From the IMG/VR virus record IMGVR_UViG_3300023181_000035, positions 1-54,693 of that record: a stretch of DNA of 54,693 bases; one strand, 5' to 3'. How positions within the stretch are numbered: the stretch's first letter is position 1; every line of letters begins with the position of its first letter. The translations under genes were made by a program, and so were the position numbers. This document shows, one piece after another, positions 23,634 through 48,291 of the stretch. The notes beneath the pieces are model-generated. The model was not told where the DNA came from, made no database searches, and saw only the letters and a list, made by a program, of their open reading frames with translations. Source of the stretch: a virus (lineage: Duplodnaviria; Caudoviricetes).

Positions 23634-23665
23634 TTTGGTGAATGGGTATTATTTTTGTATATTTA
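23634..23665 (+). promoter_or_regulatory. Promoter for the structured leader and GIY-YIG gene
   Basis: TTTG-N20-TATATTTA (one mismatch to consensus). Confidence 0.55.
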
Positions 23666-23689
23666 CAGCTTTAAAATACGAAGTAAAAT

Positions 23690-23812
23690 AGATTTTCATT
23701 TCTACCACAACGAAATCTCCAACATAAAAGATTAAACCTCTTTGTAAGTGTAATTTGGAATTGAACGTGTGGTAGCGTTTAGTTCCATTTTTATTTTACG
23801 GGAGGTTTTTCA
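23690..23812 (+). ncRNA. Putative kissing-loop structured leader RNA A
   Basis: Hairpin 1 loop ctaccaca (23702-23709) is the exact reverse complement of hairpin 2 loop tgtggtag (23768-23775); hairpin 2 ends in a U-tract. Confidence 0.65.
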
Positions 23813-23826
23813 TTTTAATTCTTTTT

Positions 23827-24546
23827 ATGGCAAAAACATTCAAAAATATTATAGTTGGTATTTATAAAATAACTTCTCCTTCAGGTAAAATATACGTAGG
23901 TCAATCTAAACACATTGAAAAAAGATTCTACGATTATCAAATAGCTAGGTGTGAACAACAAAGGAGACTTTTCAATTCCTTATTTAAGCATGGCTGGAAA
24001 AACCACATATTTGAAATAATAGAAGAATGTGACAAAGAAGAATTGGATTGCCGTGAACGCTATTGGCAGGATTTTTATGATGTTAAAAGCAGAGAAAAAG
24101 GTTTAAATTGTAAACTTACTGCATGTGGAGATCTAGTAGAAGAAAAAACAATAATTAAAATAAGAAATTTAAACCCTGATCATGTAGGTAAGGGAGTACT
24201 GAAAGGGGAGAAACACCCTAATTGGGGTAGAAAATATAGCGAATTTGAAAGATTTAAACTCTCAGTCTCTAAAGATAAAATAAGTGATGTTGATAAACTA
24301 GTATTATTAGATTCGTTTGTAGAAGGAGATTTGGAAAAACGTTATTCAGCGAGGAATAAAAAGCAAATTCAACTTAAACAGGAAAAGGAAATTCACCATA
24401 AATCAAAGATAATACTAGATACTAATACAGGAGTATTTTACTATAGTTTAAGAGAATTATGTACCCTCTATGGATTTAATTATCACACTTTAAAAAACAG
24501 ATTGAGAGGGGCTTTAAAAAATAAAACTCCTTACATTTACGTTTAA
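23827..24546 (+). CDS. GIY-YIG homing endonuclease with NUMOD3-like motif
   Basis: GIYKITSPSGKIYVGQS, R...Y, ERYW, GLN; GEKHPNWGRKYSE; C-terminal NUMOD1-like HTH. Confidence 0.85.
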   Translation: MAKTFKNIIVGIYKITSPSGKIYVGQSKHIEKRFYDYQIARCEQQRRLFNSLFKHGWKNHIFEIIEECDKEELDCRERYWQDFYDVKSREKGLNCKLTACGDLVEEKTIIKIRNLNPDHVGKGVLKGEKHPNWGRKYSEFERFKLSVSKDKISDVDKLVLLDSFVEGDLEKRYSARNKKQIQLKQEKEIHHKSKIILDTNTGVFYYSLRELCTLYGFNYHTLKNRLRGALKNKTPYIYV

Positions 24547-24559
24547 ATCTTTCATTTTT

Positions 24560-25384
24560 ATGCACTCAAACATCAATTCTGTCCTTTATAGTCATCTGTA
24601 CAACCAGGCTTCTTCATTTAATTTGGATGGGGATCGTTTGATAGCAGTTTATTGCATGTTAAAGTCGGCAAGAAAAGGTAAAGAGTCAATAAAAGCCACT
24701 AAGAAATTAAAAGGAATAGGATTAGTTAGTAAAGTTACAGGTATATCAAAAACAACTGTTTCTAAATATCTGTCTGTTCTTTTCTCTCTTGATCTAGTTT
24801 CTTTTAGCCGAAATGGGAGCTTATTATTCGCGGGAAATAAAAAATTAGAAACAAAATACAGAACTAAATCACGAAATTATAGAGTAAAATACCTAAGAGT
24901 AGTAATAGGAAAAAACATTGCAGAAACTGCTTTAAATTCCTATAGTATCCGACTACACGGATATATTGATTCAATAAACAGAAGAATAGACAAAAGCGAA
25001 ACATCTACTAAACTTACATGCAAAACATATGATAAAGTTACGTTGAGTGTTAAAGGCTTCGGGTTGTTGAAATCGGCGCAGAAAAACAAGTTAAGCAAAG
25101 GAAATTATTGGAAACAAAAGCTTATTAAAGCTAAGTGTATTTACGCATCCAGACAATACCAATTCATAGACAACTGTTCTAAAGAAGAATTTAATTATAT
25201 TAGATATTCTGACAATGACAGATCTTTGAGATGGGAAGCGGGTAAGATGTATAAAGAACTTTCTAGTTTAATTTCTAAAACTTTTATTAAAGGAGAAGTC
25301 CGCGCCAAAGAAATAACAAAAACAGATTATAAAAAGAAAGACTATCTTCAATTCGATATGATAGACTTCTGGAAAAATACATAG
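24560..25384 (+). CDS. Basic HTH-containing DNA-binding protein
   Basis: VSKVTGISKTTVSKYLSVLFSLDLV winged-HTH pattern; Lys-rich. Confidence 0.5.
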   Translation: MHSNINSVLYSHLYNQASSFNLDGDRLIAVYCMLKSARKGKESIKATKKLKGIGLVSKVTGISKTTVSKYLSVLFSLDLVSFSRNGSLLFAGNKKLETKYRTKSRNYRVKYLRVVIGKNIAETALNSYSIRLHGYIDSINRRIDKSETSTKLTCKTYDKVTLSVKGFGLLKSAQKNKLSKGNYWKQKLIKAKCIYASRQYQFIDNCSKEEFNYIRYSDNDRSLRWEAGKMYKELSSLISKTFIKGEVRAKEITKTDYKKKDYLQFDMIDFWKNT

Positions 25385-25521
25385 CTTGCATAAAGTTATT
25401 ATTAAATATTTACAACTTCAAAAATGGGGTTGTTTTGTCGTATAATAAAGTGAAAACTATTGCACTATTTAAGCAAAAAATACTTTATTGCATCATATAA
25501 ACAAAAATAATCAACAAAAAG

Positions 25522-25553
25522 CTTGTAGGAATCAAAAGTAATACTTAGATTTG
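25522..25553 (+). promoter_or_regulatory. Bacteroidota-type promoter
   Basis: CTTG-N20-TAGATTTG. Confidence 0.65.
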
Positions 25554-25988
25554 TCAAAAATAAGATATTATGAAAGTAGCTTCATTAATAACAACATATA
25601 ATAAATGCCGAAAAAGTGACAAAGCAACTAAATTTGAAAAAGACTTTATAAGTAGTTTAGTGAAGAATGCTCCTAAATACTGCTCTCCAAGACTTATACC
25701 TAATGATATTTTTCACTTAGCAAATAGAAATAATAAACTGAAATTTTCTGAAAAACAAATGGACGTTTACAATCAAATAAAAGAGAAGTACAATCCAGAC
25801 AGTACTGGTGAAGACTTATATCATAAATACTCAAAAATATTTAGAGATAAAAGTATAGAGTTAGATAGTTTTGATACACGACACTTGGAAACATTCAAAG
25901 GTATCATGAAAGAGTCTGAGAACTTTTTAAAGTGGGTTGAGGGTATAGTGGTCTAATTTCCGCGAAAAACAAATAAAAACAGTTTTTT

Positions 25989-26020
25989 CTTGCACAGTAA
26001 ATAAATACATTGTAGATTTG
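25989..26020 (+). promoter_or_regulatory. Bacteroidota-type promoter
   Basis: CTTG-N20-TAGATTTG. Confidence 0.65.
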
Positions 26021-27362
26021 TAGAAACAAAATTAACATTATGAAACCAGAAAAAATATTGAAGAAAGTTTTCGAAAAGTATAAATTTGCAGATTACCCAT
26101 TTAACAGTACTTTAGATGCAACATTAGAAGCTATGGAAGAGTATGTAAATTACAAGATAGATAAAATATTTAATGAATCTATTAATGTTAAGCACTTTCA
26201 AGATCAGCATAGGTTCATAAGCCTTAGTGAATATAAAGAGGAGATTTTACAGCAGATTAAAAATAAATAGATATGAAGACAGTAGTCAAACAAATACTAG
26301 ATAACAGAGATAAGAATTTCGACGCAAATAAATTTATAAAATGGCTTGATGAAAATAGACACAATCTATTACATTTAGAAGAGATACAGTTCAATAATGC
26401 TTACAATTCAGGAGTACAGGATAGGATTATGGATGTAGTTAAAATTAATAATGAATATTATAGCGAAAATTATCAACAATGACACCACAACAATTTTTAG
26501 AAAGTAAAGGAGTACAAGACTTATCCGAACCATTTTCAGCTTCAACTATAGAAGTGTTTTTAGAAGAGTATGGTGATTTAGTCCTTTCTGTAGCGGCGCA
26601 AAAAGCTGAGGTAAATGTAAAAGATTATAATGACTATGAAGTTGACAAGAAAAGTATATTAAACTGTTTAAAAGATAAATAACTATGACACCAATAGAGA
26701 AATGGATTAACACTTACAAACATCTTGAATTAGATAATGAAGCAATGAGTATTTATGAAGATGAGTATGTAAAAAATTATAGTGGGTCATTAGATAAATT
26801 CAGAGCAATGTATTTCCAGACATTTGTTGATATAAATACACAACCACTTAAATCTGGCGACGAAATTTATTATGTTTTTGGAAAAAGTTTAAGCAGAGGG
26901 ATTATTGAAAAAATAGACGCTTTTCAGATAGGTAAATATCTACCTAGAATCAAGATAAAAGGGAAGAAGAACTTAGTTTGGTCTAATCAAATAGTTAAAA
27001 TATGAAAAAGATTGTGAGTAAATTAGTAGAATGTGGTTATTCATTTGAATATGAGAACCGTAATAGTAATGGAGAGAAAGTTACAGTGTATGATAATGGA
27101 CTAATTATAGATAATTATCAAGGCCATGTTACTTTTGACTATGAAGGAGAAATGGAAGGTTCTGATGAAAGTGATTCTGTTTACGATTATTATTGCGCGA
27201 AAATAGAAAAAATAAAGAAATTATAATGAAAGATTGGTGGCAAACAGTAAATAAAGAAGACCCATATTTATGCAAGCTTTACAGTGGTATGTTTGGCACT
27301 CACGAAAAAAGGATCGCACAATTGTATATGATTAGGAAAGGATTTAATTTCGCGCAAAAAAG

Positions 27363-27668
27363 ATGAAAGATAGAGAATACATATTATGTGCAGCAGTTTG
27401 GTATAAAGAAGTAGAACCAAGAGCAACTAGTAGACCTATAAATACTCCAGGGGGAGTTGTACTATGTGGATTTAGACATGGAGATGTTATTTCACAGATT
27501 TCAATATTAACAGGAAAACGTCAATTTGAATTGGGTGATCACATTCAAGGCTTTCTGACAAATAAAAATAGATTTGTTGACAGAGAAGAAGGAGCTAGGA
27601 TTTTTATAGATAATGGTGGAGAAGTAAAATATTCAAAGACTAAATTATTTTCAGAAGATTTGTATTAA
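27363..27668 (+). CDS. Phage hypothetical protein
   Basis: ILCAAVWY...VLCGFRH...QGFLTNKNRFVDREE...LFSEDLY pattern that I recall from phage ORFs; function unknown. Confidence 0.5.
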   Translation: MKDREYILCAAVWYKEVEPRATSRPINTPGGVVLCGFRHGDVISQISILTGKRQFELGDHIQGFLTNKNRFVDREEGARIFIDNGGEVKYSKTKLFSEDLY

Positions 27669-27907
27669 ACATAAAATTATGAGAACACCAGAAGAAGTTA
27701 ATAAAGACATTGAAAAACTTAAGAAAGAGTTAGAAGAATCTAAAAATTACCATCAATGGACAAAACTAACAGATGATAGTACTAGAGAGAAAATGATCGG
27801 TTTCTTTAATATAGGAAATACAGAACTTATTTTATTCCATTTAAATAACGGTAAACTTTTACAATACCGTCACGTTTGGTATGGAACATGGTTAATAAAT
27901 AAAAATT

Positions 27908-30127
27908 ATGATGGTAGAAAATAAAGGAGTAGAGGTATATGATATTGAGACGTTAAAAAACTGTTTCACTTACACTGGAATTAACAGAGATACTAAAGCA
28001 GTAATTAAATTTGTTATTTGGGGAGAAGTAAATGATTTAGAAAAACTATTACTACATTTATCTTTACTTAAAGGTCAAATCGGTTTCAACAATATTAATT
28101 TCGATTACCCTGTTCTCCATTATATAATCAAAGAAAAGAAAAAACTGTTAAAATTAACAGGAGATGAAATTGCTAAATTAATTTATGCAAAAGCTCAATC
28201 TGTTATCAGTCAAGAATATTCTGCTGTAAAAGAAGCTGAAGTAATTATTCCACAATTAGATTTATTTCGTATCTGGCACTATGACAACAAGGCCAGGATG
28301 ACAGGATTAAAGAAGCTCGAGATAGCAATGTATTATCCTAATGTACAGGATATGCCTTACTCACATGATCAGGAAATTACAAGTTGGTCGCAAGTAGAAG
28401 AGATATTAGATTATAATGAAAATGATGTTTCGGCCACGCAAGCATTCTATGAATTAACTAAAGATAAGTTAGATTTAAGAAAAGGATTAAAAGAAAAATA
28501 TGGCTTAGAATGTTTAAATTATCCAGATAGTAAAATCGGAGAACAGTTGATGTTAAAACTGTATTGTCATTATACTAATCAGGATGAACAAGTAATCAAG
28601 AGAAAGAGAACTTTTAGAAATCTATTTAAATTTTCAGAATGTATTCCTGACTATATTAAATTTACTACTCCAGAATTCAATCAATTATTAGATTACATTA
28701 AAAGTATTGAAGTAACAGAACTTAAAGAATCTTTTAAATATGGATTCGAATATAATGGTTTTACTTTTGACCTAGGAACAGGCGGAATACACGGATGTAT
28801 TAAGGCAGGAGTTTACGAAAGTACTGATAATGAGATAGTTGTGGATGCAGATGTTGCTTCACTTTATCCAAGCCTCGGTATTACTTTAGGTTTATATCCA
28901 GAACATTTGGGAGATGTTTTTTCTAAAATATATGAAGATGGAATTGTTAAACCAAGATTAGAAGCCAAAAAGAATAAAGATATGGTGATGGCTGATGGTT
29001 TCAAACTTTCGGCCAACTCAGTTTATGGAAAATCTAACAGTCAATACAGTTTTCTTTGTGATCCGCTTTATACTTTGAAAACTACTCTTGCTGGTCAATT
29101 AGCTTTATGTATGTTATCTGAAATGTTAATAACAAGAGTTCCTGATTTAATTATGCTCCAAATCAATACGGACGGTTTGACAGTTAAAATTCCTATAGAA
29201 CATAAAAGACTTTATTGGGAAATTTGTCAAGAATGGGAGAAACAGACTAATTTAGTATTAGAATATGTTGCTTATTCACAAATGATCATCAGAGATGTAA
29301 ATTCGTATATCGCCGTAACGCAGAAAACTAATAAGGTTAAGTATAAAGGTGCTTTTAAGCCAAATTCAGAGATGATAAAGGATGGGGAATACCATAAGTC
29401 GTTTAGCCAAGGAATCGTTGCTCTAGCCGTCTCTAAATACTTTTTGGAAAATATACCTGTTGAAGATACAATTAAAGCACATGATAATATTTATGATTTC
29501 TGTAAAACTTTTAATGCTTCTCATGGATGGTCATGCGATATTTCAGATGTCGAATATAAAGATATTTCTTATTTAGAAGCTGTTCAGAAATTAACTGAAG
29601 CTGGATGGTATGAAGCACACACAGAAGGATTTTTTATACCTCCTAATGGTGGAAATATGGCGGGAATGCAATTATTAGAAGAAGGGAATAAAACCAAATT
29701 ATATAAAAATGTCACAAAGCAACAGAAAACAAACAGATATTATATATCGACTAATGGTAAAACCTTCCGTAAAACAAAAGATGGGAAGATTATCGAAATT
29801 GAAGCTGGTGGAAATTTAGTAACTATTTTTAATAAATACCATGAGAAATCTATTAATGAATATTATATAGATTATGATTATTATATAAAAGAATGTTTTA
29901 AGATAATTCATATCATTGATGGCACAAATGAAAGATTAGAAATAGAGAGAAAAGAATTAGCTTTACAAAAGAAGAAAGATAAAGAAGAAGAAAATTATAT
30001 TAAATTTTGCGTTGATAAAATACCCACAACACTTCAGTATCAATCTTACAATAGGGAATGGTTACAGGAGAAATACGGAATTCCTGGGGAAATAAAACCT
30101 TCTAAAACAAAAATCATATTACAGTAA
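27908..30127 (+). CDS. polB: Family B DNA polymerase
   Basis: YDIET, GFNNINFDYP and YNENDV exonuclease motifs; DVASLYPS, KLSANSVYGK and NTDG polymerase motifs. Confidence 0.92.
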   Translation: MMVENKGVEVYDIETLKNCFTYTGINRDTKAVIKFVIWGEVNDLEKLLLHLSLLKGQIGFNNINFDYPVLHYIIKEKKKLLKLTGDEIAKLIYAKAQSVISQEYSAVKEAEVIIPQLDLFRIWHYDNKARMTGLKKLEIAMYYPNVQDMPYSHDQEITSWSQVEEILDYNENDVSATQAFYELTKDKLDLRKGLKEKYGLECLNYPDSKIGEQLMLKLYCHYTNQDEQVIKRKRTFRNLFKFSECIPDYIKFTTPEFNQLLDYIKSIEVTELKESFKYGFEYNGFTFDLGTGGIHGCIKAGVYESTDNEIVVDADVASLYPSLGITLGLYPEHLGDVFSKIYEDGIVKPRLEAKKNKDMVMADGFKLSANSVYGKSNSQYSFLCDPLYTLKTTLAGQLALCMLSEMLITRVPDLIMLQINTDGLTVKIPIEHKRLYWEICQEWEKQTNLVLEYVAYSQMIIRDVNSYIAVTQKTNKVKYKGAFKPNSEMIKDGEYHKSFSQGIVALAVSKYFLENIPVEDTIKAHDNIYDFCKTFNASHGWSCDISDVEYKDISYLEAVQKLTEAGWYEAHTEGFFIPPNGGNMAGMQLLEEGNKTKLYKNVTKQQKTNRYYISTNGKTFRKTKDGKIIEIEAGGNLVTIFNKYHEKSINEYYIDYDYYIKECFKIIHIIDGTNERLEIERKELALQKKKDKEEENYIKFCVDKIPTTLQYQSYNREWLQEKYGIPGEIKPSKTKIILQ

Positions 30128-30137
30128 AAATAATTAA

Positions 30138-30169
30138 TTTGGAAAATTAAAATAAAAACATTATATTTG
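30138..30169 (+). promoter_or_regulatory. Promoter for structured leader B and its endonuclease gene
   Basis: TTTG-N20-TATATTTG. Confidence 0.7.
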
Positions 30170-30170
30170 C

Positions 30171-30283
30171 AGAGTTAAATTACAGTTCCGAGATGTAGTT
30201 TAATTTTAAGAAACAAAAATATCCCCTGTTATTGTATTAGAGTCCTCGGAAAACTCTTTTACAGTGATGGGGATTTTTATTTT
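30171..30283 (+). ncRNA. Putative kissing-loop structured leader RNA B
   Basis: 14-bp hairpin 1 (30171-30207) with loop ttccgag (30186-30192); hairpin 2 (30221-30274) with loop ctcggaa (30245-30251); U-tract follows. Confidence 0.7.
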
Positions 30284-30288
30284 AAATT

Positions 30289-31392
30289 ATGAATAAGCCA
30301 ATAAAGACCCATCAACAGTTTATAACAGACCTTAACAGAGTACACCCTAATAGAGACTGGCAAGTAATAGGAGAATATGAACATAATAAAAAACCCTTAT
30401 TATTAAGAGATAAATATGGAGATTGTTTAATACCTCCAAATTGTTTACTACAAAGATCTAAGCCTTCTGTAAAAACAGCTATAGATAAAACAGAATACAC
30501 AATTAATAAATTTAAAGAACTTTGGGGAGATAGGTACGACTATTCTAAGTTTGTATATTTAGGTGCTCGAAAAAAGTCGATAATAATTTGTAAACTTCAC
30601 GGTGAGTTTCCACAAGATGCTAACATGCATTTATCAGGAAAATGTGGGTGCCATAAATGTGCAAATGATGCAGTATCTTTAAGAGTTAGAAGTAATACCG
30701 AAGAGTTTATTGAGAAGGCAGTTAATAAATACGGAAAAGATAAGTTTTCTTTTAATAGTGCAATATATAAATCAGCTACCGAAGATGTGGTGATAACTTG
30801 TAAAGTACATGGAGATTTTGAACAAACACCTAATAGATTTTTAAATGGTCAAATTTGTACAAAATGTAGTTATAAAGAAAGCACAGCTAATTTTCACACA
30901 TTAAAAAAGAAGAGAAACAATTGTATTCTATATGTTATAGAATGTTATAACGATGAGGAAAGATTTATTAAAATAGGGGTTACTACTAGGAATATAACCG
31001 CCCGATTTAAAGATAACTATGACATGCCTTATAAGTATACGGTACTTAGAGAATTCAGATATGCTAATATAAATGCGCCAGATGCAATTGAGACCCATCT
31101 TTTAAAATTTACAAGAGGCGCAAGTTATATTCCTAAAATAAAATTCAGCGGACAAACAGAAGCTAGGAACATGTGCATAAAAAGTACCTTATTAGACTTA
31201 TTTGATGTTTATTGTGATGAACTATACTATATTGCTTTTATTAATTTCACTAAAGCATATTCGGGAGTTTTTGATGTAAGCCTACTAAACTCTGACAGTT
31301 ATTCTAAATTAGAGATTGAAACAGTAATGAAAGGATATGAAATTCATAAAAATTTTGAAAATAAACAGCTTACTACTTGCACAGTAAATTAA
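30289..31392 (+). CDS. Putative homing endonuclease: DUF723-like zinc-ribbon repeats plus GIY-YIG-like (T5orf172-type) domain
   Basis: Repeated YDYSK..Y.......IICK.HG.F.Q....HL.G..C..C; LYVIECY....FIKIGVT....RF. Confidence 0.7.
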   Translation: MNKPIKTHQQFITDLNRVHPNRDWQVIGEYEHNKKPLLLRDKYGDCLIPPNCLLQRSKPSVKTAIDKTEYTINKFKELWGDRYDYSKFVYLGARKKSIIICKLHGEFPQDANMHLSGKCGCHKCANDAVSLRVRSNTEEFIEKAVNKYGKDKFSFNSAIYKSATEDVVITCKVHGDFEQTPNRFLNGQICTKCSYKESTANFHTLKKKRNNCILYVIECYNDEERFIKIGVTTRNITARFKDNYDMPYKYTVLREFRYANINAPDAIETHLLKFTRGASYIPKIKFSGQTEARNMCIKSTLLDLFDVYCDELYYIAFINFTKAYSGVFDVSLLNSDSYSKLEIETVMKGYEIHKNFENKQLTTCTVN

Positions 31393-31407
31393 TATCATTT
31401 ATATTTG
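31376..31407 (+). promoter_or_regulatory. Bacteroidota-type promoter
   Basis: CTTG-N20-TATATTTG. Confidence 0.65.
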
Positions 31408-33692
31408 CATTAAAATTAACTGTTTTTCACTCTTTTTGCGCGAAATTTAAACAAAAATATATGAAAATAGAATTAAATCAAGAAGTATTTTTAGTAGGTA
31501 TTGGAAATATTGCACGGTATAATACACCCACTTACAACGCAACAGTTTCTAAAATAGGTAGGAAATGGTTTTATCTTGAAGTTCCCGAAGCATTCTATAT
31601 TGGCCGAGATCATAAGTTTTCATTAGAAGATGGATTATGTGACGGGAAAGGTTACATGCCTGAATGGCAAGTTTATGAATCAGAACAGAATTATAAAGAG
31701 GAAAAAGAAATGCCAATCATAAGGAAAGAAATAATAGACAACCTGAATTTGTCCTATAATGATTTAGTTAAAGTATTAATTTTTATAAAAGAATTATAGT
31801 TATGAAAGAAAAAATAGAACAAAGATTAGCTGTCTACAAAGAAGAAAAAGAAGCTTGGGTAACTAAACAAAAACAGTATCGTTGGACAGCTAAAGAAAAA
31901 GAAGAGGGTTCTACTACTTATGGGTATTATCAGGAACAGGAAGTTATGTATACTAATAAGATATTGGAGTTGGAGTGGGTTTTAGAACTGTTTTCTAATT
32001 CTTTTTCCGCGAAATCCGAACAACCTCGATTTAATGCGCCAAATAAGGACGGAGTATATAAAAGAAATGATTCATTTGATATGTAAATTATGAACAAATA
32101 CGAAAAAATAAGATTAACCTGCATATACTTAGTCCACCACTTGATATTTAACGAGGCAAAAGATTTAAGACATAGTGATGATAAAAGAGCAGAAGATTTA
32201 AAAAAGTGGGTGTTCCAGTATCAAGGAGACATGAACTCTAAAGTAATTGATTTATATTTAAAAAGGTATAAAAAGTTAGGTGTAATTCAATTAAATGATT
32301 TATTCAAAGAAGAGCGTACTAAAATTAGAGAAGCTGTTGGTGAATACTCCTGGTATCCAACTAATGTAACTTGTTGTGCTTCTTGTCACACTGGAACTAG
32401 CTCAACACCAATTGAAGAGATTATTGTTCAGCGAGAGAAATATGGAACTTTTATTTGTCATAATTGTGAAGATACTATTGATAATATTGACAATTACACT
32501 TTTACATTACTTAGCGAAAATGGTTTTTATAGAAATGAAGGATTAACAAGTCCAGATCGAAAATTACTTGGTTTTGGCGGTTCAAGATTTGTTATCAAGC
32601 ACAAGAACGGTTCTGTAACTTTAACTAATGACTTAATCGGTACAAGATCTTTTCATAAATGTTTTTTGCCGAAATTAAAAGATAAAATCAATTGTGAGAT
32701 AATTGGTATCAAAGATTTTAGGCCAAGCACTTTAAGTAAGATACTGACAGAAGAACAGTTGATAAATATCCAACCTCAAATTGAAAGAGCAGGGGAATTA
32801 GGACATACAATTGAGGAAGATAAAGAAGTTACTCGCCGACCTGAATTAATAAAATCTGTTGAAGTAGTTTTGAGTAAACTTACAAATGCAGAATTGGATG
32901 AAATACTAATTAAAACAACTAGTAGGTAATATGAAACTAACAGGACAATGCTTCGAAGCATTCAAACAGTATTGGAAAGATAAGAATATTGCTTTTTCTA
33001 TCTTGGACTCTAAAATAGAAATTATACAACCTCCTTTTCAAAACGCATTATTTATAGACTTTTTTGATTCTCAGGATATTAGAATATGGGTGAGTTACAA
33101 TGACTTCACTAAAAGAATGTTTGACGTTTATATAGATGATGAAAGGTTATTGGGTGCGTACTTAACAAGAGAAGAAGCTTTAGACGCAGGTATAGAAAAA
33201 GCTAATTATCTTTATAATAATTTATCGGAGAATGATAATAAAACTTTAAATAGCTTATGAGTGGGAATAATTTTAATCCAATAATGTTTTTCATAATACC
33301 TTTCTTTGTATGTTGTACAATCTTACTTTGGTTTAAGTATTTAAGTGCGGTATTCGTAGTTTACACAGAAACAAATAATAAAAAAGTTTTAAAGTATATG
33401 ATTTTAACATTAATATCAGGTGCGATAACAGTTAAACTACTTATAAGATGAAAGCAATTGACATATATTTTCTAATATACGGATTTAACCAAGAAGATTA
33501 CGTAATTTCTAATTATGATAACACTTGTATTCGCAATAAAGACTTATTCAAAGCTGGATACGAAGCTAAAAATGAATTGATTCAGAAACGTATTGATCAG
33601 ATAACAACAGAAATAAAAGGTCTGGCCGATGGTTCTATGAAGACAAGTTTTAAACTTAATTCTCTACGCGCCGTTAAAAAAGAACTAAAAAG

Positions 33693-39703: not shown

Positions 39704-39732
39704 ACTGTTTTTAAATCTTTTTTGCCGAAATA

Positions 39733-39764
39733 TTTGGTAGTATAAAAAACAATCCTTAGATTTG
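39733..39764 (+). promoter_or_regulatory. Bacteroidota-type promoter
   Basis: TTTG-N20-TAGATTTG. Confidence 0.65.
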
Positions 39765-39787
39765 TAAAAATAAAAAAAACAAGATAT

Positions 39788-40252
39788 ATGGACAGAATAA
39801 TCAGTTTAAAATTAAAAGTTTTTCAAGAATTTCAGTTAAATAACCCCACAGCACATTTAGGAGGAAGTTTAGGTTTATTTGTAAGAGGTATAGATTTACT
39901 CCGTGATTTAAGTAAGTCAGACTTAGATGTAACTATTGATGAGTATGATGTAAAGAACTTAGAAAAAGATGCGCTGCATTTAAGTAGCGATTTTAATGAT
40001 TTTGATTTCTGTACTACTAAAACAATTGCAGATAACGGAAATTATGTGAAGATGGATATCAGAGTGAATCCAGAACCATCATTTGAAAGTATTGAATTTG
40101 AAGGCTTTGCGTATAATGTATCTAAATTAAGGGATATTTTATTCTGGAAAAAGAAATATGCTCAAAAAGGAGTTACAAAACATAAGAATGATTTGATAGC
40201 TATAGAGACGGGAGTTAGACCAGAAGACATTGATAATTGGTTAGGATTTTAA
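39788..40252 (+). CDS. Nucleotidyltransferase-like protein (Pol-beta superfamily)
   Basis: LGGSLGL...G......SDLDV...KMDI; C-terminal KH..D. Confidence 0.6.
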   Translation: MDRIISLKLKVFQEFQLNNPTAHLGGSLGLFVRGIDLLRDLSKSDLDVTIDEYDVKNLEKDALHLSSDFNDFDFCTTKTIADNGNYVKMDIRVNPEPSFESIEFEGFAYNVSKLRDILFWKKKYAQKGVTKHKNDLIAIETGVRPEDIDNWLGF

Positions 40253-40848
40253 AATATATAATTATGACAACAGAAGAAATAATGGAAAAATACAATATTA
40301 AATTTTATTAGAATGTATAAAAAAGGAGATAAAGTGTTATACTTAGGAATAGATAAAGGAATAGTGAAAGCTGATCAAGAATACAAAGATTCTGTTTTTG
40401 TAGTTTATTCTTGCTGTGAGGATTGGAGTGATTATGATAATTATACTGCTCAAAACACACCTGCTAATAAACTAACAAAAGGTTGGTCTAAATCAGGTAC
40501 TTCTGAATGGTGTGATGAAAACGGCGGATGTAAGGAATTTCAACCTAGCAATTCTAAATGGTCTGTCGAAGGAACTGTTTATTGTATAGATTGCGGAAGA
40601 AATAATTAAGGAATATATAAAAGTATGAAAGACAGAAAAGAAGCTAAATATTGCGGAGAAACGATAAGAAAAATGCAAGAATATATTTTCAATACAGCTG
40701 AATTTAAAACAGAGCTACCTAATTATAATATTTCTGAGGATTACTTAAAACAAACAATCACATTTTTAAATGAATTATTAAACGAAAACAAATAAATTAT
40801 GTACGCAATAGATGACAGATTATCAACATATTGAAACAATACATAAGG

Positions 40849-41379
40849 ATGAATTATAAAAATACTATATTAGGAACAATAACAGTCATTCTAGGAGTGG
40901 CTGTTTTTTCACTTTATTTCGCGCCGAAAAAGAATTTAAAAAGAACTGTATATTTAGACAAAACAGTTAAAATATTAAACTACACTAACTACAGTGGATT
41001 AGATACAATAATAAACATAACAGCTCAGATACTTAAAATAAAGAATGTAAAGATTGTTAGTGTTCCTTTATATGTAGAAGATGAAGAAATTTATTTTGCT
41101 TACATCCAGGAGAAAGAGGGTTATTACTTAATTAGAGTTAATAGTAAGCTAAGTGAGGATTTATTGATTGAATCGATTTGTCATGAATTAACGCATTTGG
41201 CGCAAGAACAATCAGGCCAGCTAAAAAGACTGTATTATGGATTTTGGTATAATGGAGTTGTCTATCCCTTTTATTGGCCATACTTTGATAGAGAATTTGA
41301 GCTACGTGCTTTCGAAATGGAGTTCTATTTAAAATACGCTGTTAAAGATTTATTATATACAACGAGTCCCCTTCCTTAA
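40849..41379 (+). CDS. Membrane-anchored zincin-like metallopeptidase
   Basis: N-terminal hydrophobic helix; CHELTHLAQ (HExxH) and downstream E..A. Confidence 0.65.
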   Translation: MNYKNTILGTITVILGVAVFSLYFAPKKNLKRTVYLDKTVKILNYTNYSGLDTIINITAQILKIKNVKIVSVPLYVEDEEIYFAYIQEKEGYYLIRVNSKLSEDLLIESICHELTHLAQEQSGQLKRLYYGFWYNGVVYPFYWPYFDREFELRAFEMEFYLKYAVKDLLYTTSPLP

Positions 41380-41395
41380 CTGGTTGGGGATTTTT
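41365..41395. terminator. Terminator at the convergence of the two transcription blocks
   Basis: agtcccc/ggggatt stem plus T-tract between convergent genes. Confidence 0.65.
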
Positions 41396-41401
41396 CGACG
41401 T

Positions 41402-42064
41402 TTAATCTGTTATTTCTACTACCCAACTATGCATGGCTTGATAAACCTTTTCTCCAATCAAGGGTCGCCAATAATTTGCTTTTTCTTTAATATAAGCTTC
41501 TTTAGCGGTTTTATATGCTTGGAAGGCTTCTTCAGATGTGTCAAAAGTTCCTAAATATTTAGTCTTACCGTCTATTTTCATTGAGGTCTTATATCTGTTT
41601 TGGTTTTTTAAATAGTGGACTCCAATAGGGTATTTTCCTCGTATTTTATTGTTTTTAACAAAAAGGGAATTAAGTTCTTGCGGGACAAAACAACAAGTTT
41701 CAGGAGAATAGATTTTGTTACCTTTCACTAAGATATCTTTGTCAAGATGCCAATCAGACATATAAGTCTTAAAATTATCATTATACCAGGAAATAAACGA
41801 TTGAGCATTCTTCCACTCTTCACACAATTCTACTTGTATATAAGTTTTATCCTTAATAAGTCCTTTATTACTGTAACATCTGTACTTAATACCTTTCAAA
41901 ATATGTTTTGCCCTTTTATCCCCATAACTTCTCTTATTATGTATAGTTTTTTCTAAATTAATATATTTTTTAATTATTAAAAGTATTTGGTCTTCATAGT
42001 TTTCTACTACTTTATTAATTCCCAGCTCTTTAATTTTTGTTTCTATTAATAACTTTTTATTCAT
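41402..42064 (-). CDS. HNH-type homing endonuclease with AP2-like domain (paralog of 4709..5500)
   Basis: DKDILVKGNKIYSPETCCFVP, YLGTFDTSEEAFQAY; ATG at 42064. Confidence 0.7.
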   Translation of the reverse strand: MNKKLLIETKIKELGINKVVENYEDQILLIIKKYINLEKTIHNKRSYGDKRAKHILKGIKYRCYSNKGLIKDKTYIQVELCEEWKNAQSFISWYNDNFKTYMSDWHLDKDILVKGNKIYSPETCCFVPQELNSLFVKNNKIRGKYPIGVHYLKNQNRYKTSMKIDGKTKYLGTFDTSEEAFQAYKTAKEAYIKEKANYWRPLIGEKVYQAMHSWVVEITD

Positions 42065-42993
42065 TGAATTTCTTGTTTTATAATTCTTCAAATCTGTTTT
42101 GTTTAACTTCTTTTAACGCGGAGCATACATCATTACACTCACTTAACAACACTTTTAAGGCATCATCTTGTGTTTGACTATAATGAACCTGTATTTTACT
42201 TTTTATTGTCTCTAAATGCTCTATTTGCTTTAATAAGTCGTTGGCTATATTTAAGTTCTCTTTTGTCAAAATTAATTAGTTTTGGTTTGTAATCTTTTTA
42301 AGTCAGCTTTAAATCTCTCGTATTCCGTCCATTCGCAAGCTGAAGAAGTTTCAATATATCTGTGAATTAATTCGTCCACGATTTCATAGTAATCTAGATG
42401 GCGGGTAGAAAATCCTAACTCCTCAAATACTTTCATTTGTTCTTTTTGTTTCTCATTCATAATTACTCTATTTTATATTCTGGTATATCTATCCATCTAC
42501 TTACTACTTCCTGTGAGTTTCTTCCATCAACACAATACCAATTATCACCCTCGTAATGACATATTTTATACATGTTGTAGTTAGGGTTAATTTCGTTCTC
42601 TATATACACTAATTTTGATTTATCATCTTCTGGCAATTCCTCGCCTACTAAATTCCATTTACTCATTTTTATAAGGTTTTATTTCTTCGCATTTTAATTC
42701 ATATGTTTTACTACACCAATGACTAGCTGGTTTTTGATAGGTGTATGTGTATTCAAATTGACCTGTCCAGCCCGTTTCATAAGAATAAAGTCCGTTGTGG
42801 TCTTCTCCATATTCTTTTCCTAAGTGGTACAAAACCAAATCTCCTGTTTTATTTTCACCGTCATCTTTTGTTAGTCGGCCAACTTTATATCTGAAATTTT
42901 TAAGTCTCTCTAATTCATGATCTTGGAATCCGTTTTTAAGTTCTGTGAAGGCTTGAGGATATTTTCTTTTTAACCATTTGTTGAATTCCATAG

Positions 42994-43347
42994 TTATATT
43001 TTAATTATTCTTATTGGTATTTGTTTTTCGTATGCTAAATTAATTGTGTAAGCTGTTCCATTTGAACCCATAGTAAATGCTACTAACATATCTGCATAAT
43101 CAACAATCTGGTGATTTCTTTTTAATGGTGCGACTTTTGGCGGAAACTTGTCATATTCTGGAAGAAATTCTGTTATTTTGTAGTTGTTCTCTTCACAGTA
43201 TCTTTTTATTAAGCTATCACACCCTTTAGCACCACCACTTACAAATTCAATATCTTCTTTAATGTTTTGAATTAAGTGTTCTAATTTTTCGCAGAAATAA
43301 ACATAAGAGTCAAATGTCCTACTTCCTATAACGGCTATCTTTGGCAT
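42994..43347 (-). CDS. SLOG-family (YspA/DprA-like) protein
   Basis: IAVIGSRTF, VSGGAKGCD, PLKRNHQIVDYADMLVAF..GSNGT. Confidence 0.75.
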   Translation of the reverse strand: MPKIAVIGSRTFDSYVYFCEKLEHLIQNIKEDIEFVSGGAKGCDSLIKRYCEENNYKITEFLPEYDKFPPKVAPLKRNHQIVDYADMLVAFTMGSNGTAYTINLAYEKQIPIRIIKI

Positions 43348-46300
43348 TGTCTGTATAGTTCATTAATCTCTTTTTCTGTATAACTTATTTCTACTTTTTT
43401 ACCACCGACTAAAAAATAATTAGTAAGATAATAATAAAAAGAATCTTTACATTTCTCTAATTCTTGTTTCCAGTAATTTTCATTTTCTTCCTTCATAACT
43501 TATTACTTGTTTACCGTTAATTGTTTCTATTTTACCTACAGCAATATAACTGTTTCTTTCTTTTACTTTGTATTTTAGGCCAAGCTTCTTTTTTATTTTA
43601 TTCCAGAAATTTAAAGGCTCTTCTGGTAAATAATCATCAAATCCAAAAGTATATTGAGGCCGCTTATAGTCCTTACTCATTTGCCAGATAATTGGTTTAT
43701 TTTGTATCATATATCTTCATTATTTTAAATATCCCCACATTTACTTTCTCCGCATATTCTAATAACTCTGTTTTTGAGTCAAACCATTCCGCCCAAATAA
43801 ATCCTTTGAATCGTTTATGTTCGTCTGACCAATAACCATGACCATCAATATCATGAATTACATAACCTGTTTTCATATTGTTCTTTATATGTTAATTGTA
43901 TTTCTTCTAATATATCCACTGAACTTAGTTCTACACAGTCTTGACAAATTAGTGTATTGTTATAGAAGTCTGAAGGTTTGAAACCGTGATAATTTATTAG
44001 TTTTCTTTTCGCAGCCTCTGGCTTTAAACGTAGTGCGCCGATTGGTGTTATTTTAGACTTTTTCATGACTTACCTTATAAGTTAATAATCTATCCATTTG
44101 TTTCTGTAACTTTTCAACTTCATTATCAATATTAGCATTAAATTCAGCTACATTCAAAAGCCTGACTGTTTCTTGTCGGCCATAATCTGACCCTCTTACA
44201 ATTTCATAAGCCTCAAGAGTTGTGTATTTACCACTGAAGATAATATCATCTGAGTATCCTGATCTATTCGCTCCCCAATACCCTCTATAACATCCCGCCC
44301 ACACAACAGCTAAATCATTTGGATTAGAGACAGTTAAATCTAAAGCTTTTTGATCACGTTCTTTGCACCAAATATGTTTTTCTATTTGATGACGTTTCAT
44401 TTCTTTATCTTCAAATAAAATAGTGTCGTATTCTTTTGCTCTGTGTGCTATGATGTCTGTGTAAACTATTTCTGTATCATCATATCTTGATTCTTTTAAT
44501 TTTTCTGCGTCAAGATTGCGCATTTCTGCTAGGCCTTTACTTCTTGCTTCTCCTCTTGTTTCGCAGTTTACATATACGTCTTCAAAATACCAAGGCTCAC
44601 TTAGATCTTTTACAGATATTTTCCAAGCTTTTTTAATTATTTGTTCCATGATTCCTGATATTTTAAATTAAATTTCTTATAGTGTTTAATCCACAATTTC
44701 TTCTTAGCTTTTGAGAAATCTTCATCTCTTTTTTGTCTGTCCTGCATACTTTTAGAAAGTTCTTCCCAATCTACAGGTGTGTTGTAACTAATTACTTCTT
44801 GGCTCATACGTTTCGACCAAGCATAAATACCTTCTCCTGGTTGGATATCCATCTTTGTTTGCGGGAAAAAAGATTTATAAAGAAGTTCTTTCTCATTCTC
44901 ATAAGCTCTATGAACAGACTCATCAATAGAATTATACTTAGTTTCCCAAGGAAAATACTCTGGATATTTTTTAACTGTTTCTTCAATTCTTTTGTACATT
45001 TCTGACCCACATGATGTTTTAGTCCATAAATAACATTGTGCTTCTATTACTTCGAATGGTAAGTTTTTCATTTCTTCAATTTAAATATAAAACCTGTTGA
45101 TACTTTATCTTTAAACATTTCCTCGGCCTCTGCTTGTACTCCTTCTGACTCAATCATTCTTAGATATAAATCAGGAGATTTTAAACCTACTACTGCACAT
45201 GTTTTATCTAATTGTAGTTGAACTGCTATTGCTTTTATTGCGGAAATTGTAAGCCCTACTCTTCTTGATTGTTCTTTTATCATGTTAATTTTAAATCAAT
45301 TGCTAAATTTATTGTCATCACTTTTCTACGGGGATCTTTTATATGCTCTGTATAGTAATTTGGGTGATACTTTTCTATCCAAATATGTAATTCTGAATCT
45401 GCTTCAAGTTTAGATAGTATTTCTAACTTTGTTTTGTTGTCAAATTTATCTGTAAATAGGTTTTCGAAAAAGTCGTCTAAATCTGTCATATTATTTTATT
45501 TGTTATTTCGGCGAAAAAAGTTAAACAAACAGTCTTTGAGGACAGTTATCACTATGTTCACCCGTAGTCATATAGCAACACATACATTCATTTGAAGGTT
45601 GACTGCTCTCCCACAAATCAATTATTTCTTGCTCTGCTTCAGCTAATGTAATAGTGCCGTCATTTAAATTGTCAAATACTTCTCTTATTTCTTTTATCAT
45701 AATGTATTAATATCTATTGCAAGTCCATTTTTAATTAAATCATATCTCCAGTCAAAGTGCCATTCATCTAGTTTTTCTATTATATCTGAAATCTCATCAA
45801 AACCTAATGAATAAGAAAAAATATCATAAAATGAAAAATGTAAAGTATTTTTATTTTTACCATCGTCATAGTCCATAAATCTATCATCAGAAAAACAGAT
45901 TTTTTCATCTATTCTTCTAAGTTCTTCAATAGGTACAAACGTTTCTCCATTAATTTCTATTTCTTTTGTAAGGTCGGATAGTGGCCGTAGGATTGGGAAA
46001 ATATCTTCTAAATCGTACTGTTCATTTACAGTTCTACCTATTTCGTGAAGATCTACATCTGTAAAATCTGTAATTCCTTGAATTTGAAAAATCTTCTTAC
46101 CTTCTCCTTGTGCCATACAATTAATTTTATAAGGTAAATAACCAACAATATGTTTTAATTCTAATTTCATATATTTCTATTTAAATACAATTTATATCTG
46201 GCCAATCTATACAGTAGCTCATTATTATAATTTTGTCTCGCTTCCCACATTACATATTTCCACCAAATTCTTTTAATTGCTTTCATATTTTCCGCAAAAA

Positions 46301-47011
46301 AGAATTAAAAACAGTTATTTTATGAAAATCACAAACATAATACAACTGCTCTTGAAAAGAAGGATACTGATAATGTTCATAATTAAATACTTTCGAATTA
46401 TGAAGCTCTTGAAGAAAAATAAACTGTTCTCTAATTGTCTCCATAAAATTCTCATCATTTAATCCATAATCACAATAGTCATACATATTCAAATGAGAAG
46501 CAATATCTCTACAATACAAATGACTTTTAAAAGTATAAACATCATCTATCTTATTACATTGTCTTTCGTATTGACTCCCTTTTTCAATTTTTTCTAAACA
46601 TAAATCACATCTATGTTCTTTTCTGGATTTTAATATTTTTGAGCTGATTACTTGCATAATTGTCCATCTTTTACTAAATCCAAACCTGTAAAAGAATTCA
46701 TGTCAGAATCCTCTACATTAATAAACTCATAAGGATTTCTTTCTAAATAAATATACCAATGAGCTCCAGTAGTTTCTGTATAAAATTCCATTATATTTTC
46801 TTGACCTACTATCTCTCTTTGCCATTCAAAAACCCTATCTACATCTTCTTGCTCTTCTTTAGTTCCTTTGTCATATAAACTCGGTGAAGATACTTTACAT
46901 TCTATAAATGGAGTGCCGTGTTTTGTTTTTCCCAAAGTTACTTTTGCTCTTTTCGGTAATGCTTCTCTAATTCTGTTTAAGTCTATGGTTTTCATGTTAT
47001 TTAATTTTTTG

Positions 47012-47043
47012 TAAATTTAGTTTATTTATTTTTATTGTGCAAG
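47012..47043 (-). promoter_or_regulatory. Bacteroidota-type promoter (minus strand)
   Basis: Minus strand CTTG-N20-TAAATTTA upstream of the ORF starting at 46995. Confidence 0.5.
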
Positions 47044-47054
47044 ATAAATTTAAT

Positions 47055-48152
47055 TTATTTGCTAAAATATGTCGAACTGGTTATATTTAATTCTAAGTTT
47101 GTTAATAAAGGCATTATATTTCTTTTTATATCCCTATTTATTTTTGAGCAAAGCGGTTGAAAATTACTCCAATGATTCAGTAGGTATAATTCTTCTTCAT
47201 TTCTTGCTTTTGTGATAGGTATAATATGGTCTAAATCCCATGAGCAATTATAATTTAGTTCGGAACAAATGTTACCATGATTTTCCCAAGTCATCCAGTT
47301 TAAAAACTGAGATTCAATATGCTTTTTGAATTCTTGTATTGTACATTGTAATATTTCTTCTGTTCTTTTTGATTTAATTACTTTTCCTTTTGATGTAGAT
47401 TTTATACTTTTTCTTATTAGCCCTTTAATGTTGTTTACTAACATATACTCCTTATCATGCTTCCAAGTGTTGTTGTACTCTTCTCTCTTTTTCTCCCTCA
47501 AATAATCTTTGTTTTCCTCCCTCCATTTTTTATTTGACAACGCTATTATTTCTTTATTATTTTCTCTGTAGGTTGAATCACAAATTTTACAATAACAATT
47601 ATGGCCTGTTTTGGTGCCTTTATTTTTATTAAAATTCTCTAATGTTTTAGTCTCTTTGCATTTAGGGCATTCTTTTAAATTATCATATGGGATTATTTTA
47701 TCTTTGCTTTCAATTAAAGTAATAACATATACCTTATTGCAGTCTTTACATTGAGAGTCAAATCCATCTTTTTGTATACTAGCTTTGAAAAATTCTGAAG
47801 TGGGTTTTGCAATATTGCATTTTCTGCATACTTTATGACTTACTAATTGTTTTTCTTTATTTTTTATTAATTGAGCATCTTGCTTGGTACAAACTTTACA
47901 TCTCGAATTATAACCAGTGGTTTTGTGTTTAGTTTTTGAAAAATCTTTTAATTCCTTTGTAAAACCACAACCAGAGCAAGTCTTAATTCCTCCAATAGGT
48001 ATTATTTTTTCTTTAGCGTTTCTTTCTTCATCTTTTATCTTAGTACATGATTTACATACAGAAGTCACGCCATATTTACCTCTTTTTTGGCTATAATATT
48101 CTTCAATTGTTTTTTCTGTATTACAATAAGTGCAGATTTTTACTAAGCTCAT
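47055..48152 (-). CDS. HNH endonuclease with four CxxC...CxxC zinc-ribbon repeats
   Basis: Four K.C..C...K....F.........C..C repeats; FKKHIESQF...MTWENHG...WDLDHIIP...LNHWSNFQPL...N. Confidence 0.82.
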   Translation of the reverse strand: MSLVKICTYCNTEKTIEEYYSQKRGKYGVTSVCKSCTKIKDEERNAKEKIIPIGGIKTCSGCGFTKELKDFSKTKHKTTGYNSRCKVCTKQDAQLIKNKEKQLVSHKVCRKCNIAKPTSEFFKASIQKDGFDSQCKDCNKVYVITLIESKDKIIPYDNLKECPKCKETKTLENFNKNKGTKTGHNCYCKICDSTYRENNKEIIALSNKKWREENKDYLREKKREEYNNTWKHDKEYMLVNNIKGLIRKSIKSTSKGKVIKSKRTEEILQCTIQEFKKHIESQFLNWMTWENHGNICSELNYNCSWDLDHIIPITKARNEEELYLLNHWSNFQPLCSKINRDIKRNIMPLLTNLELNITSSTYFSK

Positions 48153-48159
48153 ATCTTAT

Positions 48160-48254
48160 AAAATAAAACCCACCCAATAGGACGGTTCGAGCGCCTAAAA
48201 GGTGGGGTAACAATAATTTCTTTTAAATTAATTAAACCTCGAACGAATAATCAA
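48160..48254 (-). ncRNA. Putative kissing-loop structured leader RNA C
   Basis: Minus strand: hairpin 1 loop gttcgag (48238-48244) complementary to hairpin 2 loop ctcgaac (48185-48191); stem cccacc/ggtggg then U-tract. Confidence 0.65.
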
Positions 48255-48259
48255 CGAGG

Positions 48260-48291
48260 CAAATATACAACTTATTTTTCAATCTGCCAAA
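48260..48291 (-). promoter_or_regulatory. Promoter for leader C and the HNH gene
   Basis: Minus strand TTTG-N20-TATATTTG. Confidence 0.7.

Follow-up and report, generated by a model that had tools for sequence, protein, structure and literature searches.

In large phages, free-standing homing endonuclease genes (HEGs) rank with the most frequent mobile genes and shape inter-phage recombination, and how their products stay harmless to the carrier is, to our knowledge, known only for a few T4 genes. Control by kissing loops is familiar from antisense systems such as ColE1 RNAI/RNAII, the countertranscript attenuation of pT181 and pIP501, and the P1/P7 c4 RNA with its a and b sites. In our case, three endonuclease genes in a 54.7-kb IMG/VR virus record (IMGVR_UViG_3300023181_000035, positions 1 to 54,693; hereafter the window, meaning the whole stretch of DNA that was analysed) are each preceded by a promoter and an RNA leader in which the loops of two hairpins are exact complements of each other. 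Combined with homologous loci from other viral contigs and genomes, this structured leader is real, conserved, specific to free-standing HEGs and apparently undescribed.

RNA-level restraint of HEGs has been described in T4. According to the available text of PMC2988022, T4 nucleases are restrained by terminators, RNA hairpins, processing and autorepression, and structured RNA or terminators, together with a dedicated promoter, lie directly upstream or at the start of free-standing or intron-borne HEGs (I-TevI, I-TevII, I-TevIII, segB, mobE and seg43(25)). In the hairpin type, a single hairpin masks the ribosome-binding site (RBS), a late promoter lies inside it, and late transcripts escape (PMC2988022, same portion). 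Table S3 of Fremin et al. 2023 (PMC10690425) contains unnamed IMG/VR candidates ≤25 bp upstream of HNH, GIY-YIG, NUMOD and Endonuclease_7 genes, for example DNAVirus_1007, 1290, 2711 and 7989; the accessible main text does not discuss nucleases ('endonuclease' appears once, in a reference) and has no occurrence of kissing loops. Going by identifiers and downstream domains, on which the comparison was made, some of these candidates may be leaders of the present kind. Literature searches, with subscription journals outside their coverage, retrieved no description of a kissing-loop leader of HEGs. Rfam 15 gave no match at gathering threshold on the window or on 16 related loci, and none with E≤1 at the three window leaders, in line with an earlier note on this DNA, which could assign the motif to no Rfam family.

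Three endonuclease genes of the window share a two-hairpin leader

The window belongs to a gene-dense phage genome, with a completeness estimate of ~38%. All three leaders have a common layout of promoter, 5' hairpin (H1), A-rich linker, long terminator-like hairpin (H2), U-tract and ATG, with the predicted promoter consensus 5-25 nt before H1 and the ATG 14-19 nt past H2. In each of them the H2 base is G+C-rich and runs into the U-tract. The words in the H1 and H2 loops (K1 and K2) are exact complements of 7-8 nt, namely CTACCACA/TGTGGTAG in leader 1, TTCCGAG/CTCGGAA in leader 2 and GTTCGAG/CTCGAAC in leader 3. The features are as follows.

23634..23665 (+), promoter of leader 1, TTTG ... TATATTTA, of the Bacteroidota -33/-7 type
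23690..23718 (+), hairpin H1 of leader 1, with K1 CTACCACA at 23702-23709
23719..23734 (+), A-rich linker of leader 1, CCAACATAAAAGATT
23735..23807 (+), hairpin H2 of leader 1, outer stem closing at 23807, with K2 TGTGGTAG apical at 23768-23775
23756-23787 (+), inner terminator-like hairpin within H2 of leader 1, followed by TTTTTATTTT
23827..24546 (+), GIY-YIG homing endonuclease gene, 239 aa (Pfam PF01541; phrog_314)
30138..30169 (+), promoter of leader 2, TTTG-N-TATATTTG, directly 3' of the DNA polymerase stop codon (30125-30127)
30172..30207 (+), hairpin H1 of leader 2, 13-bp stem, with K1 TTCCGAG at 30186-30192
30208..30220 (+), A-rich linker of leader 2
30221-30274 (+), hairpin H2 of leader 2, ~20 bp plus an internal loop, with K2 CTCGGAA at 30245-30251
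30274-30283 (+), U-tract of leader 2, TTTTTATTTT
30289..31392 (+), T5orf172-type endonuclease gene, 367 aa (PF10544; phrog_681/559)
~31377-31460 (+), fresh promoter and short leader for the gene after the T5orf172-type endonuclease
48260..48291 (-), promoter of leader 3
48228..48254 (-), hairpin H1 of leader 3, 7 bp including one G-U, with K1 GTTCGAG at 48238-48244
48169-48206 (-), hairpin H2 of leader 3, with K2 CTCGAAC at 48185-48191 and U-tract at 48158-48168
47055..48152 (-), Zn-ribbon endonuclease VII/HNH-like gene, 365 aa, ATG at 48152 (phrog_1035, 2340, 2255)

Behind each nuclease gene stands another promoter, whose short leader serves the gene that comes after. The earlier note had reported this architecture, and every element was found at the place it gave, including the exact loop complementarity in all three leaders. 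Its three downstream endonucleases are indeed a GIY-YIG, a T5orf172-type and a Zn-ribbon protein; the Zn-ribbon protein (47055..48152), endonuclease VII/HNH-like by its PHROG matches, has no HNH domain at Pfam threshold and gave weak Stc1/DUF6510 matches only.

The leaders fold better than expected by chance. Folding z-scores were -3.95, -5.18 and -2.68 for leaders 1, 2 and 3, and 0, 0 and 2 of 200 shuffled sequences, respectively, folded as well or better. For leader 3 the minimum-energy fold favours a competing hairpin, CCUCG/CGAGG (48237-48259), which buries K1, and the H1 of the earlier note is 2.9 kcal/mol costlier; in leader 1, two base pairs of the apical stem take up part of K2, and with folding begun at the likely transcription start, 2.5 kcal/mol must be spent to reach the kissing-competent fold. 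Both costs are below the estimated energy of the loop-loop helices, which is -8 to -11 kcal/mol overall and ~ -8.3 kcal/mol for the 7-bp kiss of leader 3. In all predicted folds, the start codon and the preceding 13-22 nt are unpaired, and the promoter motif lies upstream of both hairpins and not inside the structure.

Loop complementarity means little by itself in this genome, because chance matches between AT-rich loops are common: any 7-nt loop-loop match between 5-bp hairpins occurred 39 times, against a mean of 43.2 in 20 shuffles. A strict descriptor was used instead. Here H2 had to be terminator-like and carry K2 close to its apex, K1 had to lie within a hairpin loop, the word had to contain G+C, and an open reading frame (ORF) of ≥100 aa had to follow just downstream; by this descriptor only the three nuclease leaders qualify in the window (13 rows; 4 rows make up the three loci). 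In a constraint-folding scan, the motif was present in 0 of 940 dinucleotide-shuffled leaders, and in the real data it was recovered for leaders 2 and 3 in one run and for leaders 1 and 2 in another. Leader 3 escapes the minimum-energy scan, and each run of the constraint scan overlooks one window leader, so that the automated motif counts given below are lower bounds. The T4-like L290, L299 and L300 and the polymerase-site L091, L093 and L096 were judged by eye. As a negative control, a 15-mer from the conserved tail (TTATAAGCCAAAATG) gave chance matches only, and the motif was found in 0/80 of the loci fetched with it.

The loop words covary in homologous leaders

GIY-YIG and Zn-ribbon homologues in viral contigs have a like architecture with different loop words. 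Compensatory change among homologous leaders is seen between L003 (GGTCTGAA/TTCAGACC) and L094 (GGTCTCAA/TTGAGACC), and again in a second T4-like family, with GTAGGAG/CTCCTAC in L018, ATTGGAG/CTCCAAT in L290 and GTCGGAG/CTCCGAC in L300. L047 and L049 carry GTCGAACA/TGTTCGAC, and L052 carries GTATCTCAC/GTGAGATAC.

The largest set is that of the L016-type leaders, for which 33 loci were retrieved by DNA pattern alone and 30 copies (27 distinct) were aligned. They occur in T4-like phages, with Gp23 capsid genes in 2/5 of the records tested, one of them a complete 162-kb genome. In every copy, the 7-nt H1 loop is complementary to the 7-nt apical loop of H2. Across the 27 distinct sequences, five of the seven pairs of the kissing helix have changed on both sides and 98.9% of the cells are paired, versus 39.8-56.6% when the partner is slid; the observed score was reached in 0/500 shuffles. 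The family holds 10 K allele pairs, and the K centre is among the most variable parts of the alignment (0.9-1.7 bits), as compared with 0.38 bits for the A-rich linker, which is the sole conserved unpaired part. The basal H2 stem was fixed by the search pattern and is therefore uninformative for or against its own conservation. The H1 stem and the apical H2 stem are not mutually complementary, thus the interaction is limited to the loops.

The K alleles also differ among copies within one genome. The window has three, and G001, a close relative whose 143-kb genome is complete, bears terminal repeats and encodes a DNA polymerase 97% identical to that of the window, has five; one T4-like record carries the K words CTGGTCC, ATGCAAC and CTGCAAC. 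Leader families have the architecture in common and no sequence in common. The K1:K2 pairing itself is under selection, and the words are free to vary. The earlier note had taken the differing loops of the three window leaders as covariation within one genome. Since these leaders are mutually unalignable, their differences are not covariation in the strict sense; true compensatory covariation is that of the L016-type leaders, L003/L094 and L018/L290/L300.

Common proportions were also evident across families. H2 measures 46-58 nt in 19 of the 23 distinct leaders, at least five T occur in the first 8 nt past H2 in 18 of the 23, and the linkers are 54% A and 5% G versus 39% A and 16% G in all upstream regions. 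The constant H2 length and the A-rich linker suggest a defined three-dimensional fold, with the linker possibly placed along H2.

The leader accompanies unrelated families of HEGs

The architecture precedes at least five unrelated nuclease families, namely GIY-YIG, T5orf172/phrog_681, endonuclease VII-like, HNH-AP2 and NUMOD4-HNH_3/HNH-NUMOD3, and is present in two unrelated phage lineages, the ~143-kb Bacteroidota-type group and the T4-like phages. The shared ~100-125-nt structured RNA tied to selfish nucleases, as proposed in the earlier note, is thus upheld and extended well beyond the window. Among the L016-type loci, 24 of the 27 ORFs of ≥60 aa were tested (one truncated at the locus end and two near-duplicates were left out), and all 24 contained HEG domains of the GIY-YIG, NUMOD1/3 or I-HmuI type; four of the 33 loci were without an ORF of ≥60 aa, one through loss of the start codon, one lying at the locus edge and two having a 19-aa ORF.

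In a pooled survey, the window was taken together with G001 and 110 loci. Among the 399 distinct regions of ≥80 nt found upstream of genes there, 25 scored, and 24 of these precede nuclease homologues or nuclease-family matches. The pooled loci had been collected around nuclease or polymerase genes and the sample is therefore biased; the two complete genomes are free of that bias. In G001, the motif was found in three of the five HEG-annotated genes with long leaders, versus 1/58 of the others. In the T4-like G002, it was found in one of 51 long leaders, and that gene is a GIY-YIG HEG. A blastn search of deposited phages with window 27908-31400 gave no match, and no relatives of the T5orf172-type protein were found in viral contigs by the pattern method.

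Leaders, nucleases and phage backbones in changing combinations

The site directly after the DNA polymerase gene was inspected in ten relatives. A leader and a nuclease gene follow the polymerase stop codon in eight of them, and L092 is without both. In L097, a GIY-YIG ORF without a leader lies within the DNA polymerase gene and splits it into two ORFs, an arrangement suggestive of an intron or a split gene. Among the eight leaders there are at least five different K pairs (ATACGAG(C), TTCCGAG, ATGCAGA, TGGCGG and GGTCTCAA), and all eight ORFs behind them match endonuclease PHROGs, these being phrog_681/559, phrog_314 (GIY-YIG) or phrog_953 (HNH-AP2).

The combinations vary from one relative to the next. 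Leader 2 of the window and the leader of L093 are 76% identical, with the same K and a near-identical H2, and their nucleases are only 33% identical; L089 and L093 have nucleases that are 56% identical behind different leaders; and the window and L089 have polymerases that are 97% identical, followed by a different leader and a different nuclease. Homology between the window and G001 stops at the promoter or, at the polymerase site, in the 5' arm of H1, and picks up again where the nuclease gene ends, at its stop codon. At the leader 3 site, 98%-identical G001 homology ends at 48259 and resumes at ~47060, and at the leader 1 site the sequence in common with a relative's contig ends at 23682, just past the promoter. 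Contigs of relatives join 30113/30114 to 31374/31376 and 23682 to 25503. Leaders, HEGs and phage backbones reassort independently.

G001 holds an orphan leader at 116325-116233 (-), the site equivalent to that of window leader 1, with an intact promoter and the K words GTAACGG/CCGTTAC. The next ~600 nt have no ORF of ≥50 aa and contain Cys-rich frame fragments, and the leader is probably the remnant of a decayed Zn-ribbon nuclease gene.

Promoters and other genes of the window

The Bacteroidota-type promoter pattern TTTG-N17-23-TAnnTTTG has 15 matches in the window versus 5.08 expected, and 15 or more were reached in 0/100 shuffles. Most other promoters of the window have an ATG ~20 nt downstream and no intervening hairpin leader. 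The promoters of the nuclease genes have an extended consensus common to one another and to G001, and 24 promoter nucleotides are identical at two distant sites (7821-7844 and 30146-30169), which suggests that promoter copies act as recombination points.

Numerous small ORFs stand beside genes for a DNA polymerase (27908-30127), a ribonucleotide reductase, a reverse transcriptase and a helicase of the DnaB-like kind. Near-threshold Rfam matches lie at 8739-8868 (+), to RT-17 (RF03020, 38.7 bits versus a gathering threshold of 40.4, E 6e-4) and to the RT-14 RNA, just before and over the start of an ORF with a reverse-transcriptase domain (8795-9811, PF00078); this region may be a phage-borne reverse transcriptase with an associated structured RNA. 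A repeated element of ~26 nt, CTGTTTTT-N5-8-(C)TTTTT(C)GCGGAAA, contains the small palindrome TTTTCGCGGAAA. It occurs in the window at 12010-12037, 17539-17565, 31420-31445 and 31988-32014 (+) and at 25982-25957 (-), in seven copies in G001 and also in the relatives L089-L095, often within a short leader that separates a promoter from a gene other than a nuclease gene; one such gene is that behind the endonuclease at 30289-31392. This element could be an operator or a small hairpin. Other proteins include the following.

7253-7519 (+), gp17-like superinfection-exclusion protein
17677-18381 (+), protein with a T7 gp5.9-like RecBCD-inhibitor domain at its end
~31461-31799 (+), ProQ C-terminal-like protein, encoded directly after the endonuclease at 30289-31392
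48292-54600 (-), 2102-aa ORF with an ART-PolyVal ADP-ribosyltransferase domain near its N-terminus

Possible functions of the leader

The leader is generic, as it serves any nuclease family, cis-acting, as it always lies immediately 5' of the ORF, and portable. We tentatively favour a role in which it limits or insulates nuclease expression by attenuation at H2, with H2 locked to H1 by the kiss; of the three functional readings offered in the earlier note, attenuation remains the best. Transcription would start a few bases before H1, which would fold and show a K1 word of 6-10 nt in its loop. After an A-rich linker of ~8-22 nt, H2 (~50 nt) would show the complementary K2 at its apex and end in a G+C-rich base and a U-tract, with the start codon ~13-22 nt further on. 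K1 and K2 would then form an intramolecular kissing helix, tying the 5' hairpin to the tip of the terminator hairpin in a compact, pseudoknot-like fold. H2 would work as a leaky intrinsic terminator that holds down the number of transcripts reaching the nuclease gene, whether they start at the adjacent promoter or come from genes further upstream, for instance that of the DNA polymerase, and the kiss would keep the fold robust in any genomic context where the mobile cassette lands. The nuclease level would thereby be low and independent of context, and the next operon would be served by its own promoter downstream of the HEG. Termination at H2, a negative effect and a contribution of the kiss are what we infer from the sequences.

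Several observations weigh against this proposal. The U-tract is poor (fewer than five T in 8 nt) in 5/23 distinct leaders, such as that of L089 (GGCGTTAT). A promoter directly upstream of a terminator is an odd arrangement for simply lowering expression, and in most leaders the kiss lies outside the terminator stem, so that a switch is not apparent. A translational role is hinted at by the short spacing to the ATG, which is conserved, and by a tail conserved in relatives, TTTATAAGCCAAAATG. Nor is the leader obligatory: two HNH-AP2 genes of the window (4688-5500 (+) and 41402-42091 (-); phrog_953, Pfam AP2) and two HEGs of G001 are without it. The same HNH-AP2 family (phrog_953) does carry the leader in L095 and at ~136.7 kb in G001. 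In three T4-like records the leader precedes 1/4, 5/8 and 3/3 of the GIY-YIG genes (three of these nine were assigned by eye). Finally, one motif precedes a 310-aa protein (G001 ORF 23535-22603) without a Pfam or PHROG match, which is either a new nuclease or DNA-binding family or a non-nuclease user of the leader. The leader of this gene, at G001 23667-23553 (-), has the longest loop-loop match, of 10 nt (ACTAGGAATC).

A post-transcriptional role is a serious rival, though a less likely one. Here the very stable kissing-locked fold, standing immediately 5' of a short, unstructured AU-rich initiation region, would dampen or gate translation, or set the mRNA half-life, or both: it would keep ribosomes from loading on its 5' side or from reinitiating after the upstream gene and act as a 5' block to RNases, and H2 would be structural and non-terminating. 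Between the H2 base and the ATG there are mostly 13-22 nt, a narrow spacing that about equals the ordinary ~20-nt leaders of other genes in this phage; L089, L090 and L096 keep H1, H2 and the kiss without a good U-tract; the tail TTTATAAGCCAAAATG is conserved; and the A-rich linker and constant H2 length suit a compact tertiary fold. T4 HEGs, moreover, are under translational control by RNA structure, and in seg43(25) a very stable hairpin stands just 5' of the RBS and leaves it free (PMC2988022, available text). However, the initiation region in the present leaders is never paired in the predicted folds, from the 13-22 nt before the start codon through the codon itself, so that it is not directly occluded, and the canonical U-tract of 18/23 leaders would be needless in a purely structural element.

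It is unlikely that the leader is a small-RNA gene, with a terminated RNA of ~100 nt acting in trans through its K loops, for example by pairing with the matching leader of a co-infecting phage or with other transcripts, and the K alleles serving as determinants of specificity or incompatibility. A promoter, a 5' hairpin, a single-stranded A-rich stretch and a terminator hairpin are the layout of many bacterial small RNAs. The orphan leader of G001 stands intact ahead of an apparently decayed Zn-ribbon HEG, the K alleles are many (10 in 27 sequences) and differ among copies in one genome, and the K centre is among the most variable columns (0.9-1.7 bits versus 0.38 for the linker). Nevertheless, intramolecular pairing should win over pairing in trans, no single-stranded seed is conserved across families, and an orphan leader may outlast its HEG simply by being short. 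Contig L005 has two leaders with the same K, GTCGTAG, thus the alleles within a genome need not be orthogonal. A bolder and somewhat less probable idea is that the K words are programmable addresses, by which the terminated leader RNA, present in abundance, would find its cognate leader elsewhere, for example on a co-infecting phage with the same cassette. If this were true, HEG cassettes would fall into RNA-defined incompatibility or immunity groups, in the way that plasmid antisense RNAs or the P1/P7 c4 RNAs set specificity, adding an RNA layer to the competition of selfish nucleases for a homing site.

We regard as highly improbable that the loops are complementary without any RNA function and that the cassettes work at the DNA level, as regulatory or recombination units (promoter plus terminator, like the composite promoter/stem-loop motifs of T4-type phages called PeSLs, for promoter-early stem-loop) for the swapping of HEG modules. 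Between the window and G001, homology breaks off at the promoter and H1, contigs of relatives replace the cassette, and the HEG promoters are alike, with 24 identical nucleotides at 7821-7844 and 30146-30169; PeSLs, too, are found at exchange points (PMC4122927, available text). A recombination role leaves the compensatory K1:K2 changes unexplained, with 98.9% of cells paired and 5/7 pairs changed on both sides, and PeSLs as characterised in the same text are single stem-loops that flank assorted ORFs with no nuclease preference.

That the nuclease has the leader as its RNA partner, be it as a type III antitoxin or as a guide or cofactor RNA, both of which the earlier note had considered, is scarcely credible: the order of promoter, structured RNA, terminator and nuclease resembles ToxIN loci and the position of omega-RNA, but the leaders contain no tandem repeats, the proteins behind them are GIY-YIG, HNH, endonuclease VII-like and T5orf172 DNA endonucleases with DNA-binding modules (NUMOD1/3/4, AP2, Zn ribbons) and not ToxN-like RNases, nuclease families without relation to one another stand behind one leader type, and each variable word is the complement of another, so that none is free to guide.

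Further candidates were rejected. Antitermination by strand competition does not fit stems of H1 and H2 that are non-complementary and a K2 that is an apical loop. A riboswitch was rejected as no conserved unpaired core is common to all members; ARAGORN found no tRNA-like element; self-cleaving ribozymes and other Rfam motifs gave no match; and for an RNA-guided nuclease of the IscB/TnpB kind, there were no RuvC/TnpB or IscB domains downstream and no free variable guide.

If the kiss gates termination or translation, this would be a new type of leader control. A single, easily recognised RNA architecture accompanies unrelated nuclease families, providing a testable, portable control module for toxic genes and a sequence signature for locating HEG cassettes and their boundaries in metagenomes. 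The leader is also a natural case of a terminator coupled to a kissing loop within one molecule, for which many allele pairs occur in nature, and as such could interest RNA engineering.

Comparison with known systems

The leader differs from type III toxin-antitoxin loci in that TRF found no repeat array in the leaders, the only nearby row being a weak 28-nt, 2.2-copy AT-rich match at 30118-30179 (promoter), and the putative toxin is not an endoribonuclease of the ToxN/AbiE type. With PeSLs it has in common a promoter and a stem-loop, repetition within a genome (three in the window, five in G001) and a place at the junctions of exchanged modules (PMC4122927, available text). PeSLs are, however, single stem-loops for which the same text describes no tertiary pairing, whereas the present leaders have two hairpins with covarying loops and are almost confined to nuclease genes.

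The kissing-loop antisense systems offer a parallel in the loops themselves, with fully complementary words of 6-8 nt, short stems, coupling to a terminator or to expression of a potentially harmful gene, and paired allele changes. In those systems pairing takes place between two RNAs, or between a processed RNA and the site it targets; here a single nascent leader carries both loops, and the terminator stem faces no competition from the kiss. As in an intrinsic-terminator attenuator, a G+C-rich stem with a U-tract stands between the predicted promoter and the start codon.

The leader does not belong to the RBS-sequestering T4 type, as its start codon and the 13-22 nt before it are unpaired and its promoter is outside the structure. 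Unlike the T4 HEG hairpins, it has two hairpins downstream of its promoter and a start region free of pairing, and its loops are joined by a kiss, an interaction that goes unmentioned in the available text of the T4 review (PMC2988022). What it shares with the T4 restraint described there is structured RNA or a terminator directly upstream of the HEG, a promoter of its own and the presumed purpose of low or late nuclease expression. Among the known systems, the leader is best filed as a variant of the RNA-level restraint of HEGs.

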